DNA of 64,000 nt from assembly GCA_965215565.1 (NCBI GenBank), contig CBDCDZ010000004.1, positions 1,024,001 through 1,088,000 of the forward strand. The letters are read 5' to 3'. This DNA comes from Trueperaceae bacterium (GTDB lineage Bacteria > Deinococcota > Deinococci > Deinococcales > Trueperaceae). The notes beneath the pieces were generated by a model, which was given only the letters and a program-made list of their open reading frames with translations, did no database searches and was not told where the DNA came from. Made by a program: the position numbers and the translations under genes. Every line of letters begins with the position of its first letter. Position 1 is the first letter of the stretch. Below, piece by piece: positions 10,551 through 63,840 of this stretch.

Positions 10551-10650
10551 TAGCAGTTCCACAACATATTGAGACAGTTGAGCGCAGATATACCCGCTAA
10601 AGCAGGGCACAGGTCATCCCTTGAAGTGCGTGCTAGTTAGGCACTTTTGC
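10551..10650 (-). repeat. Family-1 dispersed element, partial, with inserts
   Basis: TAGCAGTTCCACAACATATTGAGACAGTTGAGCGCAGAT...TCATCCCTTGAAGTGCGTGCTAGTT, reverse complement of the 18272 copy's right part. Confidence 0.85.
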
Positions 10651-14551: not shown

Positions 14552-16020
14552 GCGGCGACCTCTTCTCCTAGAGAGGCGCTGAACTCGTGGAAAAACTTTT
14601 CGAAGAGGTTCTGGATGAGCCGCGTTCGGTACGCCGCACTGCCGCGCAAATCGTCGATCGGCACGAAAGTCTCGCCTAGCACCGCTTTGACCTCTTTCAC
14701 CGTTTGAACGTTCCAAGGTTGACCCATGAGCACCTCTTCAGCCGCAACCGCGCGCACGGGCGTCGCCGCGACGCCGCCGTACGCGAGCCTCGCATGGACG
14801 ACGCGCCCCGCTTCGGCTACATCCACCGTGAACGCCGCCGCCACGATGCTGATGTCGTCCGCGCCGCGCTTGCCCACCTTGTACGCTTGGCTGAAACGCT
14901 TTTTTGCGCCCCTCGAGTCCTCTTGAGGAATCCGCACCGAGATGATGACCTCACCCGGACCCAAACTCGTCTGGCGGTAGCCCTTGAAAAACTCGGCGAT
15001 GGGGACGGTGCGCTCACCTTTTGCGCTCGCGAGTCTAAGCTCCGCGTCCAGCGCGAGCAAGACAGGCGGCAAGTCCCCAATCGGCGACGCCGTGCCGAGG
15101 TTGCCCCCCAGCGTCGCCCGGTTGCGAATCTGCCGCGCCGCAAACCAGCGGAGCATCTCGTCTAGGGCGGGAAACATACCTCTGCATTCTTTTTCGGTGC
15201 GGGTGAGGGGGACGGCTGCGCCTAGCTCGAGATAACTAGAGGTGCTAGAGGTAGCATCTGTAGAAGAGCTAGAGGTAGCATCTGTAGAAGAGCTAGAGGT
15301 AGTATCTGTAGAAGAGCTAGAGGTAGCTATAGTTTTAAGCTCTACAACCTCTTCCAAGGAGATGAGCACGGGGAATTCCCTGTGGAACTTGTTGATTTCC
15401 ACGCCCAAGTCCGTGCCACCTGCGATGAGCTTGGCGTCCGGCTGCTCTGCCATGAGCGTGAAAACCTCTTGCAGGCTCGAGGGGCGAAAGAAGCGTTTCT
15501 CGCCGCACCGATAAGAGGTTGAGGCTCGAGCGCTAGAGGCTGACACGGGATGAATGTCCGAGGTTGACTCTGAGCTTTCCAAACGCTCCATCGCCCGGCG
15601 GATTGGCAGATAGCCCGTGCAGCGGCACAAGTTTCCCTCGATCACCTCGTCATTTAGCTCACCGTTATGCTGCGCCGCGATCATGCTCATCACGAACCCC
15701 GGCGTGCAGTAGCCGCACTGCGAGCCGCCCGTCTCGATCATCGCTTTCTGTACAGGGTGCAGTTCGCCGTTGGCGACGCCCTCCACCGTCAAGAGGTCTT
15801 TGCCCATGACTGACGCCAGCGGTACTAGGCAGCTATTGACCGCTTGGACGCTCCGCCCTTCTCTGATGACCACCGTACACGCGCCGCAATCCCCTTCGGC
15901 GCAGCCCTCTTTAGTGCCGACATCGCCACGTTGCCGTAAAAAGGTGAGCAGCGGGACCGTGGGCGAAACGCCCGTCACCTTCTCCTCTTTACCGTTAATC
16001 ATTAGCGTGAACTCAGTCAT
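14548..16020 (-). CDS. xdhA: Xanthine dehydrogenase small subunit (2Fe-2S + FAD)
   Basis: GTKEGCAEGDCGAC, QCGYCTPGF, GNLCRCTGY, AGGTDLG, QIRNRATLGGN. Confidence 0.95.
   Translation of the reverse strand: MTEFTLMINGKEEKVTGVSPTVPLLTFLRQRGDVGTKEGCAEGDCGACTVVIREGRSVQAVNSCLVPLASVMGKDLLTVEGVANGELHPVQKAMIETGGSQCGYCTPGFVMSMIAAQHNGELNDEVIEGNLCRCTGYLPIRRAMERLESSESTSDIHPVSASSARASTSYRCGEKRFFRPSSLQEVFTLMAEQPDAKLIAGGTDLGVEINKFHREFPVLISLEEVVELKTIATSSSSTDTTSSSSTDATSSSSTDATSSTSSYLELGAAVPLTRTEKECRGMFPALDEMLRWFAARQIRNRATLGGNLGTASPIGDLPPVLLALDAELRLASAKGERTVPIAEFFKGYRQTSLGPGEVIISVRIPQEDSRGAKKRFSQAYKVGKRGADDISIVAAAFTVDVAEAGRVVHARLAYGGVAATPVRAVAAEEVLMGQPWNVQTVKEVKAVLGETFVPIDDLRGSAAYRTRLIQNLFEKFFHEFSASLGEEVAA
15235..15328. 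repeat. In-frame 24-nt tandem repeat inside xdhA
   Basis: GCTAGAGGTAGCATCTGTAGAAGA x3 plus partial units; encodes TSSSSTD(T/A). Confidence 0.9.
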
Positions 16021-17300: not shown

Positions 17301-17411
17301 TAGCAGGTATCATCTGGTCAGAGACACTCTCACTTTGTGAAACGCTGTTTAGCACGCACTTTAAGGGATGATACCTGCGTTCAACTGTCTCAGTGTGTCG
17401 TGGAACTGCTA
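17301..17411 (+). repeat. Family-1 dispersed element, empty 111-bp core
   Basis: TAGCAGGTATCATCTGG...AGCACGCAC...GATGATACCTGCG...GGAACTGCTA, exactly 111 bp. Confidence 0.9.
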
Positions 17412-17592
17412 ACAGTAGTATCAAACCAAGGGGTTGAAACCCCTTAGTTATCGCATGGAGACGGTAGAAGAAGCACGCGGCGGCATTCGACTTAGGACCG
17501 CTACCCAAAAAGCTGACTAGCTGAAGTACTGACTCACTGAGATGCTTCAACTGCGAACTTTTGTTACGCTTATGTGAAGAAAAAGAGGTAGG

Positions 17593-18252
17593 ATGGGAGT
17601 AGGCAGCACCTCAAATAAGATGCTCGAGACCTTATCTGACTTTCTCAACCAAGCGGGCGCGTTCGCGCCCTTAGTTTACATCTCGTTCTTTCTGGCGACG
17701 GCGCTCTTGCCCTTTATCCCGACGCCTGTGGTTGTTGCTTTGGGCGGCAGTATGCTGGGCTCGGTGCCCGCCATCGGCTACGGCGTGATCGGTTTGGGGC
17801 TCGGCGCGTACCTGGCGCTCAAGCTCTCGCGCACGTTGGGGCGTCCGGTGGTGATTCGCTTAGTTGGCGCAAAGGCGTGGCGGGAGTGGGAGTACCTCTT
17901 GGGCATCCGCTCGCCTGCGATGTGGGGGCTGATTTTCTTCCTCTTGAATATCGACTTTGCGGTGGTGGCTGCGGGGCTCTCGAGCGTCCCCATGTGGCAG
18001 CTCTGGCTGAGCGCGGTTATCGCGCGGCTCCCTTGGCTCGTGCTGAGCGCCTTTTTTGGCGAATCGCTGCTCAGCCCGGAGATGCTGCCGCTTGCGGTTG
18101 CTATCGTCGTGGTGCTCATCGTCGCGATTCACTTCATAAGGAAGCGGCTGCGCCACTACTTCGTTGTAAAACAGATGAATCAGGGGTCAGAGGGCGCTCA
18201 GGCGGCTAAGCCTAAGCTCGCCAAGAAGGACCTGTCGAAGACGGATAGATAG
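17593..18252 (+). CDS. TVP38/VTT (DedA-like) membrane protein
   Basis: Hydrophobic; PFIPTPVVVALGGSMLG, F...AAGLS, RLP pattern. Confidence 0.75.
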   Translation: MGVGSTSNKMLETLSDFLNQAGAFAPLVYISFFLATALLPFIPTPVVVALGGSMLGSVPAIGYGVIGLGLGAYLALKLSRTLGRPVVIRLVGAKAWREWEYLLGIRSPAMWGLIFFLLNIDFAVVAAGLSSVPMWQLWLSAVIARLPWLVLSAFFGESLLSPEMLPLAVAIVVVLIVAIHFIRKRLRHYFVVKQMNQGSEGAQAAKPKLAKKDLSKTDR

Positions 18253-18271
18253 AACGCCCAGCCCTTAGTTT

Positions 18272-18502
18272 TAGCAGGTCTAGCGGGAGCGGGACCACGC
18301 GACTTCATCTGGTCAGAGTGTACGAAGTTTTGTGAAGCAACACTTGCACTTTGTAAAACGATGTTTCGCTTTGCGAAAAGTGCCCAACTAGCACGCACTT
18401 CAAGGGATGAAATCCCGCAACGGCAGGGCGACCTGCCCGTAACGCTAGTCCTTGCGGACAGAGATCTGCGCTCAACTGTCTCAATATGTTGTGGAACTGC
18501 TA
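18272..18502 (+). repeat. Family-1 element with five inserts (231 bp)
   Basis: Core plus 24+21+23+25+27 nt = 231 bp; the 27-nt insert is nested inside the 25-nt one. Confidence 0.9.
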
Positions 18503-18597
18503 TTTTTAGCCGTTAGCAAAGACTTTCAAGCTGACAGCCTTTGAAGAGAAACCGCGTTTAGAACAGCATGATGCACACTTAGAAGACATAAGCTATA

Positions 18598-18755
18598 TAG
18601 CGGTTATCAGAAGTATTGGACTGAAATAGCGCAGATTTCACAGCTTTGCTGTAACGGAACTTCATCCGACAATGTGCGTGCTAGTCGTTGTTCTATCACG
18701 TGAGACTGGCTCAAATCAGCTCCGACCGTAGGGAGACAGACTTTGATACCTGCTA
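18598..18755 (-). repeat. Family-1 element, diverged, two inserts (158 bp)
   Basis: TAGCGGTT...GCGCAGAT[insert]TCATCC...GTGCGTGCTA...CAG[insert]TGATACCTGCTA. Confidence 0.8.
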
Positions 18756-18762
18756 TATGCAC

Positions 18763-20136
18763 CTAATCCAGCGGTATCTTCTTACCCGGATTCATGATGT
18801 TCTTAGGGTCTAGCGCGCGTTTAAGCGTCCGCATCACCTCTAGCGACGCGCCGTGCTCTTCGTCCATGTAGCGCAGCTTGCGCACGCCGACGCCGTGTTC
18901 GCCTGTAGACGTGCCGCCGAGGTTGAGCGCCAGCTTGACGAGTTGATGGCTGACCTCTGCCACCTTTTCCTTGACGGTCTCGTCCTCTTTGTCGAAGAAG
19001 ATAGCCAGGTGAAAGTTGCCGTCGCCGACGTGCCCGACGAGGTACGCGGTGAGGTCATTCTGTTTGCATAAAGCTAAAGATTGAGTGACCGCTTCAGGGA
19101 GTTTAGAAATCGGCACGGCTAAGTCGGTGACGACGCTACTCTTGCCGGGGTTCGCAGCAACCGTAGCGTAGTAGGTGCTGTGGCGCGCGTTCCAGAGTTT
19201 TTCGCGCTCTGCGGGGTCGGTGCTCGAGTCGAACGCTAGCGCCCCCACCTCTTCCGCCAGCTCTTTCGCTAGTGCCGCCTCCGCTTCGACGCCCGCCGGG
19301 TTGCCGTGAAACTCTAGAAAGACCGTCATCTCTTCGGGATAAGACGTCCCTTGATGGGCGTTGACCGCCGCGATACTCTTGGGATCAATCAACTCGCACC
19401 GCGCGACGGGAACGCCCGCTTGAATTAAAGAGGTGACAAAATGCGTCGCCGCCTCCACATCCCCAAAGGGAACCCGCGCCGCCGACGCCGCTTCGGGCAG
19501 TCCGGTCAGTCGCACGCTCACCTCGGTAATGACGCCCAAGGTTCCCTCCGCCCCGCAGTAGAGCCTCGTGAGGTTGTAGCCGCTCGAGGACTTGCGCGAC
19601 TTCGAGCCGGTGCGGATGACCTCACCTGTCGGCGTGACCACCTCGAGCCCCAACACGAAGTCCGCCGTGACCCCGTAGCGCACCGCCGCCGTGCCCGAGG
19701 CGTTCGTCGAGACCATCCCGCCGAGCGACGCATGTGCGCCGGGGTCCACGGGGAAGAAAAGCCCGTCGCGACGCGAGCGTTCGTTGATCTGCGGATAGGT
19801 CACGGCGCTTTGCACGCGCATCAGCAGGTCTTGGGGCGAATATTCGACGATTTGGTCCATGCGCCCCATGTCGAGGGAGACGCCGCCGCGCAGGGGGACG
19901 GTGTGACCTTCGAGGCTCGAGTTCGAGCCTACGGGCGTGATCGGGATACCGTGCTCATACGCGAACCTGACCACGCGCTGCACCTCTTCAGTGGACTCGG
20001 GATAGACTACCGCGTCGGGCAAGACCGCCTCGTCGTAAGACTCGCCCTTGCCGTGCTGCTCCAGCACGGACGCGCTCGTGCTCACCTGCTCGGGGCGCAA
20101 GAACGCCGCCAAATCCTGCGCGATGCTTTTAATCAT
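18763..20136 (-). CDS. FAD-linked oxidase (GlcD / D-lactate dehydrogenase family)
   Basis: PDAVVYP, SSLEGH, FFPVDPGA, NASGT, GAEGTLG, GHVGDGNFH, TGEHGVG, ALDPKNIMNPGK. Confidence 0.9.
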   Translation of the reverse strand: MIKSIAQDLAAFLRPEQVSTSASVLEQHGKGESYDEAVLPDAVVYPESTEEVQRVVRFAYEHGIPITPVGSNSSLEGHTVPLRGGVSLDMGRMDQIVEYSPQDLLMRVQSAVTYPQINERSRRDGLFFPVDPGAHASLGGMVSTNASGTAAVRYGVTADFVLGLEVVTPTGEVIRTGSKSRKSSSGYNLTRLYCGAEGTLGVITEVSVRLTGLPEAASAARVPFGDVEAATHFVTSLIQAGVPVARCELIDPKSIAAVNAHQGTSYPEEMTVFLEFHGNPAGVEAEAALAKELAEEVGALAFDSSTDPAEREKLWNARHSTYYATVAANPGKSSVVTDLAVPISKLPEAVTQSLALCKQNDLTAYLVGHVGDGNFHLAIFFDKEDETVKEKVAEVSHQLVKLALNLGGTSTGEHGVGVRKLRYMDEEHGASLEVMRTLKRALDPKNIMNPGKKIPLD

Positions 20137-20265
20137 GACTTTAGAGTACGCCTTTAGACGCTTTGACACGACGTGTGTACATAGCGTTTCCACGAGAAGC
20201 TGCTGTAGCGGCTTCTCGTACGAATAGACGCAAATAGAAATAGACGCCATCAGTTGTGTAGCAAT

Positions 20266-20466
20266 GAGCAGGTATCATCTGGTCAGAGTGTACGAAGTTT
20301 TGCGAAGCAACACTCTCACTTTTTAGAACATCGTTTCCTTTTGCTGCGCAAAAACTACGTAATCGGAAAACTGCGTAAGCAGCACGCACATTCTGGGATG
20401 AAATCCCGCTAGTCCTCACGGACAGAGATCTGCGCTCATCCGTCTCAGTATGTTTTGGAACTGCTA
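20266..20466 (+). repeat. Family-1 element with inserts (201 bp)
   Basis: Core plus 21 + (21 with nested 23) + 25 nt. Confidence 0.9.
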
Positions 20467-48728: not shown

Positions 48729-48933
48729 TAGCAGTTCTACAACATATCGAGACAGTTGAGCGCAGATCTCTGTCCGCAAGGACTAGCGTTACGGGCAGGC
48801 CGCCCTGCCGTTGCGGGATTTCATCCCTTGAAGTGCGTGCTAGTTACGCAGTTTTCCGCAGGAAACATTGTTTTGTAAAGTGAGAGTGTTGCTTCGCAAA
48901 ACTTCGTACACTCTGACCAGATGATACCTGCTA
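48729..48933 (-). repeat. Family-1 element with four inserts (205 bp)
   Basis: 111+21+21+25+27 = 205; close to the 18272 copy. Confidence 0.9.
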
Positions 48934-51370: not shown

Positions 51371-51481
51371 TAGCAGGTATCATCTGGTCTGAGACGCCCT
51401 CACTGTAGAAAACATTGTTTAGCACGCGCTTTGTAAGATGATACCTGCGTCATTCTGTCTCAATATGTTTTGAAAGTGCTA
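51371..51481 (+). repeat. Family-1 element, empty 111-bp core
   Basis: TAGCAGGTATCATCTGG...GATGATACCTGCG...GTGCTA. Confidence 0.88.
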
Positions 51482-51558: not shown

Positions 51559-51632
<74 letters not shown>

Positions 51633-51715
51633 AAGTTGTAGAGGTATCATCTACAATTCACTGGATGAACCTTTTTACAAAATACCATCTCTAAGGGGAG
51701 ACGATACCTCCAGCG

Positions 51716-51807
<92 letters not shown>

Positions 51808-51931
51808 AAGTTTTTATAGGTAACATCTACACTCTACAGATGTACCTAGCTAACGCTGACCTTCCAAAAGCGGAGGAAATGTACTTACACACTAGCAGGA
51901 GAGCGTTGACTTAAGGACAACACCTCCACCT

Positions 51932-52021
51932 TGGCGGAGGGCGAGGGATTCGAACCCCCGATAGAGTCGCCCCTATAACGGTTTTCAAGACCGTCGCATT
52001 CAACCGCTCTGCCAGCCCTCC
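51932..52021 (-). tRNA. tRNA-Ser(TGA)
   Basis: GGAGGGC...ACGGT-CTTGAAA-ACCGT, long variable arm, GGTTCGAATCC, ...GCCA. Confidence 0.95.
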
Positions 52022-52192: not shown

Positions 52193-52302
52193 TAGCAAGT
52201 ATCATTTGGTTTAAGCTAACCTCACTATGAAGAACACCGTTGAGCCCACACTTTCTTGAATGAGACTTGCGCTGTCCCAATCAGTACTTGTGGTAATTGC
52301 TC
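52193..52302 (+). repeat. Family-1 element, degenerate core (about 110 bp)
   Basis: TAGCAAGTATCATTTGG...CTCAC...AGCCCACAC...ATGAGACTTGCG...AATTGCT. Confidence 0.7.
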
Positions 52303-55082: not shown

Positions 55083-55241
55083 TAGCAGATATCATCTGGT
55101 TTGAGACACTCTCACTTTTGAGAACATTGTTTCGCTCTGCGAAAACTGCGTAAGCAGCACGCACGTTCTGGGATGAAATCCCGCTAGTCCTTGCGGACAG
55201 AGACCTGCGCCCATCCGTCTCAATATGTTTTGGAACTGCTA
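55083..55241 (+). repeat. Family-1 element with two inserts (159 bp)
   Basis: 111+23+25 = 159. Confidence 0.9.
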
Positions 55242-56530: not shown

Positions 56531-56641
56531 TAGCAGGCATCATCTGGTTTGGGACGCTCCCACTGTTCGAAGCGGCGTCTAGCACACACATTCGGAGATG
56601 ATATCTGCGCTCATCCATCTCAGTATGTCTTGGAACTGCTA
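56531..56641 (+). repeat. Family-1 element, empty 111-bp core
   Basis: TAGCAGGCATCATCTGG...GATGATATCTGCG...GGAACTGCTA. Confidence 0.88.
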
Positions 56642-60419: not shown

Positions 60420-60549
60420 TAGCAGGTATCATCTGGTCAGCTGCACCTTCACTAAAGATAACCTCGTTTAGCACGCACTTGATTGTGATGATATCTGCGA
60501 AGAAGTGCTTCGCATAACTATGTTCAAGCAACGATAAGTGGAACTGCTG
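60420..60549 (+). repeat. Family-1 element with one insert (130 bp)
   Basis: Same subfamily as the 63667 copy (CAAGCAACGATAAGTGGAACTGCT). Confidence 0.85.
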
Positions 60550-60554
60550 TTTGA

Positions 60555-60665
60555 TAGCAGGTATCATCTGGTTTGAAACACTCGTACTTTTGAGAATGTT
60601 GTGCAGCACGCACATACTGAGATGATGTCTGCGCTCATCCGTCTCGGTATGTTTTGGAACTGCTG
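60555..60665 (+). repeat. Family-1 element, empty 111-bp core, tandem to previous copy
   Basis: TAGCAGGTATCATCTGG...GATGATGTCTGCG...GGAACTGCTG. Confidence 0.88.
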
Positions 60666-63238: not shown

Positions 63239-63607
63239 GGGGGCGACCTGGTCTCGACGGGGCTCACGGAGGATAGGGTAGCGTGTAGAGGACGCCGTTG
63301 GCCTCTCTAAAAAACGGCACAGCCATTAACTGGCAATAACAACAGCTCACAGAGCTTTGCACTAGCTGCGTAAAAACAGCTAACCGTCCGCTAGAAGCCC
63401 CGCTTGTGGCTCGCTAGAGGGACGTCCTAAAACAAGCTAGCTGCGTCTTCTAACGTCGGGGCGCAGCGAAACTAAAATGATGTTTAAGCTGGGGGCGCGG
63501 GTCTGTCACCGAGCCCGCCTCCAGCCGACACTCACTCGGTGACTACACACGTAGAAGCCCGTCTGAAGGAGTTTCGGACGCGGGTTCGACTCCCGCCGCC
63601 TCCACCA
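63239..63607 (+). ncRNA. ssrA: tmRNA
   Basis: 5' GGGGGCG pairs with 3' CGCCTCC-ACCA (G3-U), T-arm GGGTTCGACTCCC; tag ORF 63332-63373 GNNNSSQSFALAA*; upstream TGnTATACT. Confidence 0.95.
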
Positions 63608-63666: not shown

Positions 63667-63840
63667 TAGCAGGTATCATCTGGTCAGCTTGGGCGAAGCC
63701 ATGCGAAGCAACGCTCTCACCAAAGGGAACATCGTTTCCTTCGGAAAACTTCGTAATTAGCACGCACTTTAGATGATGATATCTGCGAAGAAGTGTTGCT
63801 TCGCATAGTTGCACTCAAGCAACGATAAGTGGAACTGCTA
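63667..63840 (+). repeat. Family-1 element with three 21-nt inserts (174 bp)
   Basis: 111+21+21+21 = 174. Confidence 0.88.

Follow-up and report, generated by a model that had tools for sequence, protein, structure and literature searches.

A Trueperaceae genome carries mobile micro-cassettes of 17 to 27 nucleotides (nt) that are inserted at fixed slots of a 111-bp MITE. The cassettes move independently of the MITE, and the insertion of three of their families (C, E, and H) replaces a single target adenine. The focal example is a composite MITE copy harboring five cassettes in the window, i.e., the whole 64,000-nt stretch of DNA that was analyzed (Table 1).

Results

The 111-bp host is a MITE

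A core profile of 111 columns, built from 87 genome copies, identified 529 loci on contig C4 of the genome under study (G000), reduced to 514 by de-duplication, of which 323 are full length. The element ends with 6-bp terminal inverted repeats (TAGCAG/CTGCTA) and contains an additional internal inverted repeat (positions 3 to 14 and 67 to 79). A 3-bp AT-rich target duplication was detected for 158 of the 206 copies with both ends (shuffle mean of 6.7 and maximum of 13), in comparison to 24 duplications of 2 bp and 5 of 4 bp. The focal MITE copy is missing from the orthologous site of a congener, G001. Together, these results establish that the host is a MITE, as the preliminary description had surmised. 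The TA duplication of IS630-type MITEs was ruled out, since the duplication is of 3 bp.

The MITE was found in 4 of the 41 genomes searched, namely, G000, its congeners G001 and G002 (genus g1), and G005, which belongs to another genus. All of the G005 copies examined (7/7) are devoid of cassettes, indicating that the empty MITE is the ancestral state. No autonomous IS with the ends of the MITE was found in G000. ISAzo13, considered as a possible autonomous partner, is absent from G000, G001, G002, and G005, and its ends, in four genomes of the family, differ. In many MITE copies, the right end is divergent and reads ...ACCGCTA or ...ATTGCT rather than GGAACTGCTA, e.g., at positions 18623 to 18755 and 52193 to 52273 of the window, and the G005 copies resemble this subfamily. 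A recurrent insert of ~103 bp, unrelated to the micro-cassettes, is located near slot 3 in other copies (G000 C4:687563, C4:3126784, and related copies).

An Rfam search of the window returned nothing beyond tRNAs and tmRNA; three tRNA genes and the tmRNA (51559 to 52021 and 63239 to 63607) lie near MITE copies. The 201-bp MITE (20266 to 20466), whose first base is G and not T, is adjoined at its 5′ end by a short repeat fragment (20241 to 20265). A 24-bp tandem repeat (15237 to 15327) is located within a xanthine-dehydrogenase-like ORF, in which it encodes a Ser/Thr-rich linker.

Table 1. Features of the focal locus and MITE copies of the window
Feature	Position	Strand	Description
Composite MITE copy	18272..18502	+	111-bp core (ends TAGCAG...CTGCTA) plus five cassettes; profile alignment
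Left target-site duplication	18269..18271	+	3 bp, TTT, focal copy
Right target-site duplication	18503..18505	+	3 bp, TTT, focal copy
Cassette H	18280..18304	+	25 nt, in place of A in core GGT-A-TC (net +24)
Cassette B	18319..18339	+	21 nt, double GNA mini-hairpin (one stem mutated here), between GAG and AC
Cassette A variant	18365..18387	-	23 nt, between GT and CT
Cassette C	18411..18463	-	26 nt (18411-18418 plus 18446-18463), one core base replaced (net +25), split by F
Cassette F	18419..18445	.	27 nt, inside C at GC site
Empty MITE	17301..17411	+	111 bp, duplication ACA
MITE, divergent-right-end subfamily	18623..18755	-	Cassette E plus C-type cassette
MITE	20266..20466	+	B, A inside A (44 nt), and C
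MITE	48729..48933	-	B, A, and F-bearing C
Empty MITE	51371..51481	+	Duplication ATT
MITE	55083..55241	+	A and C, duplication CTC
Empty MITE	56531..56641	+	Duplication TAG
MITE, divergent subfamily	60420..60548	+	B-type cassette at core position 88
Empty MITE	60555..60665	+	Duplication TGA
MITE	63667..63840	+	B, A, and reversed B (net +63), duplication AGT
Partial MITE	10551..10636	-	D-type cassette plus end of A cassette
Left neighbor	17593..18252	+	219-aa hydrophobic protein, no NCBIfam match; outside the system
Right neighbor	18763..20250	-	FAD-linked oxidase, GlcD-like (below curated cutoff); outside the system

Cassettes of at least eight families occupy fixed slots and nest in each other

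Profile alignment of the window copies upheld the length sums initially proposed for the copies of 231, 205, 201, 174, and 159 bp. The focal copy (18272 to 18502) is 111+24+21+23+52, in which the 52 is a 25 with a nested 27. The copies at 48729 to 48933 (minus strand), 20266 to 20466, and 55083 to 55241 are 111+21+21+52, 111+21+44+25, and 111+23+25, respectively, and that at 63667 to 63840 is of 174 bp (net +63). Four 111-bp copies are empty (starting at 17301, 51371, 56531, and 60555). The net gains of 24 and 25 bp had been correctly summed, but the cassettes of slots 1 and 4 are in fact 25 and 26 nt long, each replacing one target base. Both of the nested insertions first reported are present.

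On the genome scale, the lengths of the full-length copies (n = 323) are <109 bp (6 copies), 109 to 113 bp (119), 114 to 126 bp (4), 127 to 136 bp (61), 137 to 152 bp (5), 153 to 163 bp (40), 164 to 171 bp (0), and ≥172 bp (88). These steps in length are not a product of chance. Among the inserts of at least 14 nt, 424 of 454 fall within five intervals comprising 25 of the 110 core junctions. The recurrence of the slots was thus borne out, although the fifth had to be relocated to core position 88 (after GT), where it is found in the divergent subfamily of the window copies, and a further slot precedes GCG at core position 76. Slots 1 and 4 correspond to a single target in opposite orientations, and the same holds for slots 2 and 6. 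Insert lengths peak at 21 to 25 nt, with multiples for nests; the units of family G are of 17 to 19 nt and F is of 27 nt.

The cassettes form at least eight families (labeled A to H), all of 17 to 27 nt. Read on the strand displaying the GNA loops, A, B, and G consist of two tandem mini-hairpins, have T as their first base, and are located 5′ of AC or AG. In C and E, a bulged hairpin is combined with a 6- to 8-nt tail; D, F, and H differ. The inserts of slots 2 and 3 belong to one superfamily in opposite orientations, as previously suggested. Nests are up to four layers deep. The loops of other cassettes serve as insertion sites for A, G is found at the 5′ end of A and in tandem stacks, and C hosts both F and reversed copies of C itself. 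Different cassettes share one slot, in agreement with the preliminary description, and 32 slot combinations were identified among 320 near-complete copies. The latter diversity and the empty state of the seven outgroup copies refute the proposal that the short copies arose from a long ancestor by deletion or that the pattern is an artifact of alignment, a reading that we regard as virtually without prospects.

Cassettes move independently of the MITE

Pairs of MITE cores differing at no more than 2 of 93 columns displayed different slot contents in 141 of 171 cases, including 12 of 16 identical pairs. All four filled/empty combinations were observed for all 10 of the slot pairs tested. Parsimony on a FastTree phylogeny of the cores, which is weakly resolved, led to 41, 63, 67, 83, 23, and 9 changes at six slots for 46, 79, 86, 108, 26, and 16 carriers, respectively, the shuffled means being 43.5, 70.4, 76.2, 89.3, 25.3, and 15.8. 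For family F, 28 changes were obtained for 29 carriers (shuffle mean, 28.2). Restriction of each insert to a single clade of cores had been singled out as the pattern that would oppose independent mobility; the inserts are not so confined.

The clustering of slots 2, 3, and 6 exceeds that of every shuffle (63 versus a minimum of 64, 67 versus 71, and 9 versus 14, respectively), indicating that some of the distribution reflects inheritance together with the MITE. This clustering would also be accounted for if a few ancestral insertions per slot had been disseminated across MITE copies through recombination or gene conversion. The ~500 homologous hosts favor such exchanges, and a constant junction substitution is the expected outcome of co-conversion. 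However, core variants are linked across slots (Cramér's V up to 0.75 at 53 nt; mean, 0.21 to 0.31), whereas the V between slot content and any core variant is at most 0.35, except for the replaced base (0.92), which argues against long conversion tracts. Moreover, conversion between MITE copies cannot explain the cassettes found within single-copy genes and unrelated repeats (see below). It is refuted as the sole cause of the distribution and is quite improbable as its general explanation, although it may add to cassette counts inside the MITE. Copying from one arm of a MITE to the other was rejected, since the 28 copies filled at both slots 1 and 4 all carry different cassettes in the two.

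The search for cassettes outside of the scaffold, which the preliminary description had called for, was positive. Family A accounted for 31 matches, in comparison to 2 to 5 in shuffled genomes, and a stricter list comprised 44 matches (A, 27; F, 5; H, 5; C, 5; and B, 2), with empty counterparts for 19 of them. Single-copy flanks were present on both sides at 9 of the 22 outside A sites tested. The hosts include tandem repeats of heptamers, further palindromic repeats, IS630 pseudogenes, an IS containing a Mutator-type domain, and single-copy genes, namely, a HicA-like gene (in-frame insert of 24 nt) and an HbpS-like gene (frameshift), in addition to the cassettes themselves. Cassette H is present in 3 copies of an unrelated repeat and missing from 8 others. 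F was recovered at 5 nonscaffold sites of G000 and, letter for letter, in 3 copies of another repeat of G005. The two-tier organization initially envisaged is thus retained for independent mobility and not in its strict form, since the MITE is the main but not the sole host.

The HicA-like toxin gene with its 8-codon cassette insert (G000 C4:643050-643400) is located upstream of a 138-aa putative antitoxin ORF. Two adjacent IS630 pseudogenes (G000 C4:1932313-1935762) both contain stacked cassettes; a MITE with the duplication CTA splits one of them, and the other has a second MITE immediately upstream.

The tail pattern of family A returned 73 matches in G000, 31 in G001, 26 in G002, and at most 1 in each of the other 108 genomes; its reversed control returned none in the three congeners. 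A scan of contigs led to five matches, i.e., one Trueperaceae record, with an exact family A cassette in the same host repeat, and four single matches in other phyla. One exact 21-mer of family A, possibly a chance match, was found in a Methanosarcinales contig, in a region rich in hairpins. In a metagenome scan, 6 of 106 matches were real B cassettes in a diverged scaffold, the remainder looking like chance; these six loci come from another organism and represent a diverged MITE in which the slot of cassette B is unchanged. A viral scan revealed no full cassette among the loci retrieved.

Insertion of C, E, and H replaces one target adenine

No cassette duplicates its target, and F displays a 2-nt (GC) ambiguity at its junctions without loss of any base. 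At the MITE junctions of C (n = 103), the base found in place of the target A is T (81), C (20), or G (2) and never A, whereas empty cores contain the target A in 238 of 239 copies at slot 1 and in 158 of 174 copies at slot 4. Similarly, the target base is replaced in 11 of 11 insertions of E and kept in 231 of 232 empty cores. Replacement is not restricted to the MITE, as H replaces A in the unrelated repeat mentioned above and C does so in other hosts. Together, these results indicate that insertion of families C, E, and H replaces one target adenine. In nests of C in C, the A is mostly just lost, sometimes with 1 or 2 more bases overwritten, and one nest retains it. For family A inserted after CC (slot 5), a T-to-C change is present at the junction of 6 of 14 filled copies versus 4 of 235 empty copies. 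Replacement and clean insertion are indistinguishable for A, B, and G cassettes starting with T.

DNA-type folds point to single-stranded DNA

Loops were counted with patterns that required the stems and left the loop letters free, so that loops and stem variety are the informative part. Between TTAC and GTT, 136 of 171 loops of family A are of the G..A type (GAA, 65; GCA, 36; GTA, 15; GGA, 7). Among 135 B-like matches, 101 contain two G..A loops and none contains two T..C loops. Stem changes are compensated, as AC/GT is replaced by AG/CT in 11 A copies; B displays seven stem types, and the stems of C are CTC..AG or TTC..AA. In the A variant of the focal copy (18365 to 18387), the 5′ mini-hairpin, read on the minus strand, is a mutated form of the compensated AG-GCA-CT type. 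DNA hairpins of the GCGNAGC/GCGNNAGC type greatly exceed their RNA counterparts in stability and are nuclease resistant (PMC13037366). The combination of DNA-type GNA or GNNA loops with compensated stems points to single-stranded DNA. In certain variants of C and E, the GNA loop is found on the opposite strand, no clear GNA loop is present in F and H, and nearest-neighbor DNA folding energies favor neither strand. With respect to the replication strand, 28 of 40 are on one side (P = 0.017, uncorrected), with replichores deduced from a weak skew and dnaA located elsewhere.

The loops also bear on a retro-element type of mobility, in which an RNA intermediate would be copied by a reverse transcriptase. 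Many MITE copies adjoin genes and may be transcribed, and G001 contains a group II intron-type reverse transcriptase. Nonetheless, the loops include all four GNA triloops, which are a DNA motif, and not GNRA/UUCG only, and RVT_1 had no match in G000 (99.99% complete) and G002. Mobility through RNA is therefore improbable. The G001 reverse transcriptase is present in four copies in that genome and in none in G000 or G002.

An IS110 element also occupies slot 1

Slot 1 of the MITE is also occupied by seven near-identical IS110 copies of 1,124 bp (e.g., G000 C4 4135764-4137000), all at the TC core (7/7) and in different cores and flanks; one relative occupies slot 1 of a MITE in G002. The IS110 gene is a 315-aa frame matching NF033542 (171 bits versus a cutoff of 140). 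The 5′ noncoding end of the element folds (z = -3.29) and contains guide-like segments matching 9 of 11 and 7 of 8 bases of the MITE target and 8 of 8 and 5 of 5 bases of the element's own joined ends (donor). This 5′ end is a candidate bridge RNA with predicted target and donor guides. In IS621 and ISPpu9, bridge RNAs guide the elements to REP targets (PMC12288879). Exact IS110 target sites remain at 230 positions in G000. G002 contains a second IS110 type, seated in another palindromic repeat family; the latter also occurs in G000 (e.g., C4:608525, C4:1247443, and C4:144780), where it hosts cassettes too.

The residence of all seven intact copies in slot 1 raises the question of whether the resident bridge recombinase, or a relative, mobilizes the cassettes. 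IS110 genes are present in G000, G001, and G002 and not in G005, matching the expansion of family A in the four genomes. In contrast to the cassettes, IS110 keeps the target A and duplicates the TC core, and its donor-like guides match its own ends and no cassette junction. The C cassette starts with CTC even at targets without TC, and this C covaries with an internal G. Finally, a duplex DNA circle of 21 to 27 bp is not physically plausible. Mobilization by IS110 is accordingly very improbable, and we treat the element as a separate user of the slot 1 site of the cassettes.

Y1_Tnp, RVT_1, and GIY-YIG genes do not track with the cassettes

The preliminary description placed the mobilizing enzyme outside of the window and suggested looking for co-occurring HUH or reverse transcriptase genes. 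Neither Y1_Tnp nor reverse transcriptase genes track with the cassettes, and none of the families tested genome-wide provided a candidate, the IS110 of slot 1 being at odds with the cassette junctions. A domain search did not detect Y1_Tnp in G001 and G002, which both carry cassettes, and detected it in G005, which is without the expansion of family A. G000 contains Y1_Tnp only as a domain of a restriction-modification protein, which is accompanied by a distinct hairpin family of its own. This Y1/RAYT-like HUH domain (G000 C4:3786234-3786551) is in frame in the large protein and is followed by translated CAAGGGG..CCCCTT hairpins, a family with 157 matches on both strands of the genome, including one at about positions 17425 to 17445 of the window. 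No GIY-YIG gene is flanked by cassettes. Y2_Tnp had no match, although its control also matched nowhere. A scan for genes flanked by dense mini-hairpins returned only other repeats. No free intermediate was observed. In contigs from sequencing runs, probably of the source sample, the joints are explained by other copies.

Discussion

Proposed mechanism of cassette insertion

Our working proposal, which we advance tentatively and with somewhat less than an even chance of being correct, is that the 17- to 27-nt micro-elements are folded single-stranded DNAs spliced into one strand by a trans-acting enzyme, most likely of the HUH/Y1-like type. The active strand would be that with the GNA or GNNA loops. 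The enzyme may read shape rather than sequence, i.e., the two mini-hairpins of A, B, and G and the bulged hairpin with its 6- to 8-nt tail of C and E. It would cut 5′ of the target A, which would be lost or overwritten during joining or repair, and replication would then fix the insert. The MITE would be the main landing ground, since it offers ~500 neutral copies of the preferred sites, and would carry its load when transposing. Against this proposal, none of the Y1_Tnp, RVT_1, and GIY-YIG families tracks with or flanks the cassettes. HUH transposition is not known to involve the loss of a target base. A broader reading, possible but rather doubtful, is that the SDR phenomenon extends across phyla in the form of 17- to 27-nt single-stranded DNA micro-transposons that swap one target adenine in a natural, scar-minimal chemistry of oligonucleotide insertion, the enzyme being encoded in genus g1 and falling outside of known transposase, recombinase, and reverse transcriptase families.

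Insertion might alternatively involve host replication and repair without any dedicated transposase. A nuclease-resistant hairpin oligomer would be captured at a nick or Okazaki junction, or the template would be switched onto a filled site, and flap trimming would remove or overwrite the first target base or bases. The junctions are consistent with this possibility, as the base varies (T, C, G, or none), as nests of C in C overwrite 1 to 3 target bases, and as the T-to-C change follows CC in family A at the frequencies given above. The families searched did not include a cognate enzyme, and mini-hairpins are poor binders of SSB and occur at priming sites (PMC13037366). Conversely, the strict lengths, the conserved tails, and the fixed orientation per target suit a dedicated recognizer, as does an expansion limited to one genus (73, 31, and 26 matches versus at most 1 in 108 other genomes). 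We consider capture by the host machinery to be unlikely, while deserving attention.

Regardless of the enzyme, this genome offers hundreds of insertions that can be compared with corresponding empty sites, together with a mutable structural grammar. The junction signature, i.e., the loss or overwriting of one A, is a requirement for any candidate enzyme, and the narrow distribution of the cassettes (three congeners and an outgroup with an empty host) makes a gene-content screen feasible. If the splicing proposal is true, an enzyme that splices short hairpin oligomers without duplication would represent a new chemistry and possibly an editing tool. The IS110 element would in turn be a natural bridge recombinase with >200 intact chromosomal targets.

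Comparison with known systems

ERIC elements with internal inserts are known. RUP, NEMIS/Correia, ERIC, and Nezha are listed as bacterial MITEs in PMC3733652, and they resemble the 111-bp host by their short terminal inverted repeats, hundreds of intergenic copies, and target duplication. The present host differs from these MITEs by a 3-bp AT-rich duplication instead of TA and by inserts that are themselves mobile and nested.

The 1.13-kb IS110 element is similar to IS621 and ISPpu9 (PMC12288879) in targeting a dispersed repeat at a fixed 2-nt core and in displaying guide-like segments upstream of its gene. In contrast, its target is a 5′ subterminal motif of a MITE, shared with the micro-cassettes, and the likeness accounts for the large passenger and not for the small ones. 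The cassettes differ from nonautonomous IS110 elements, since they have no 2-nt core at both junctions (only F is GC ambiguous) and no donor match to a bridge guide.

REP/REPIN elements mobilized by RAYT (TnpA-REP) and nonautonomous IS200/IS605 elements are likewise short imperfect hairpins without target duplication, with a likely single-stranded DNA substrate and an enzyme acting in trans. Unlike REP/REPIN elements, the cassettes lack a GTAG/CGTC tag at the foot of the hairpin, inverted doublets, and a flanking RAYT. Further differences from REP/RAYT are that Y1_Tnp is missing from two carrier genomes and that the cassette target consists of 1 or 2 conserved bases plus context, with the loss of a base.

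The closest parallel is provided by the small dispersed repeats of the Nostocaceae (SDR1-8), reportedly described by Elhai et al. in 2008 as repeats of ~21 to 27 nt with precise site-directed insertion and compensated structure, which are said to reside in minitransposons and heptamer tandem repeats and to nest in themselves. We know of no mechanism proposed since then for the movement of 21- to 27-nt repeats, and our literature search found none. The SDRs share with the present cassettes their size, precise insertion with empty and filled alleles, compensated structure, nesting, and residence in minitransposons and heptamer repeats. Differences concern the host, which does not belong to the Nostocaceae, and the expansion, which is limited here to genus g1. 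In the present case, at least eight families follow one grammar and occupy fixed slots in one 500-copy MITE; replacement of the target base, which is not known for the SDRs, further sets the cassettes apart from that description. SDR5 enters HIP1 between bases 3 and 4 (GCG/ATCGC; PMC4390886), i.e., 5′ of an A, like the present cassettes. Outside of the Nostocaceae, HIP1-rich genomes are reported to be free of SDR-like repeats (PMC5861425). By analogy, the Trueperaceae cassettes may be viewed as SDR-type very small mobile repeats in another phylum, which would work like those of Nostoc.
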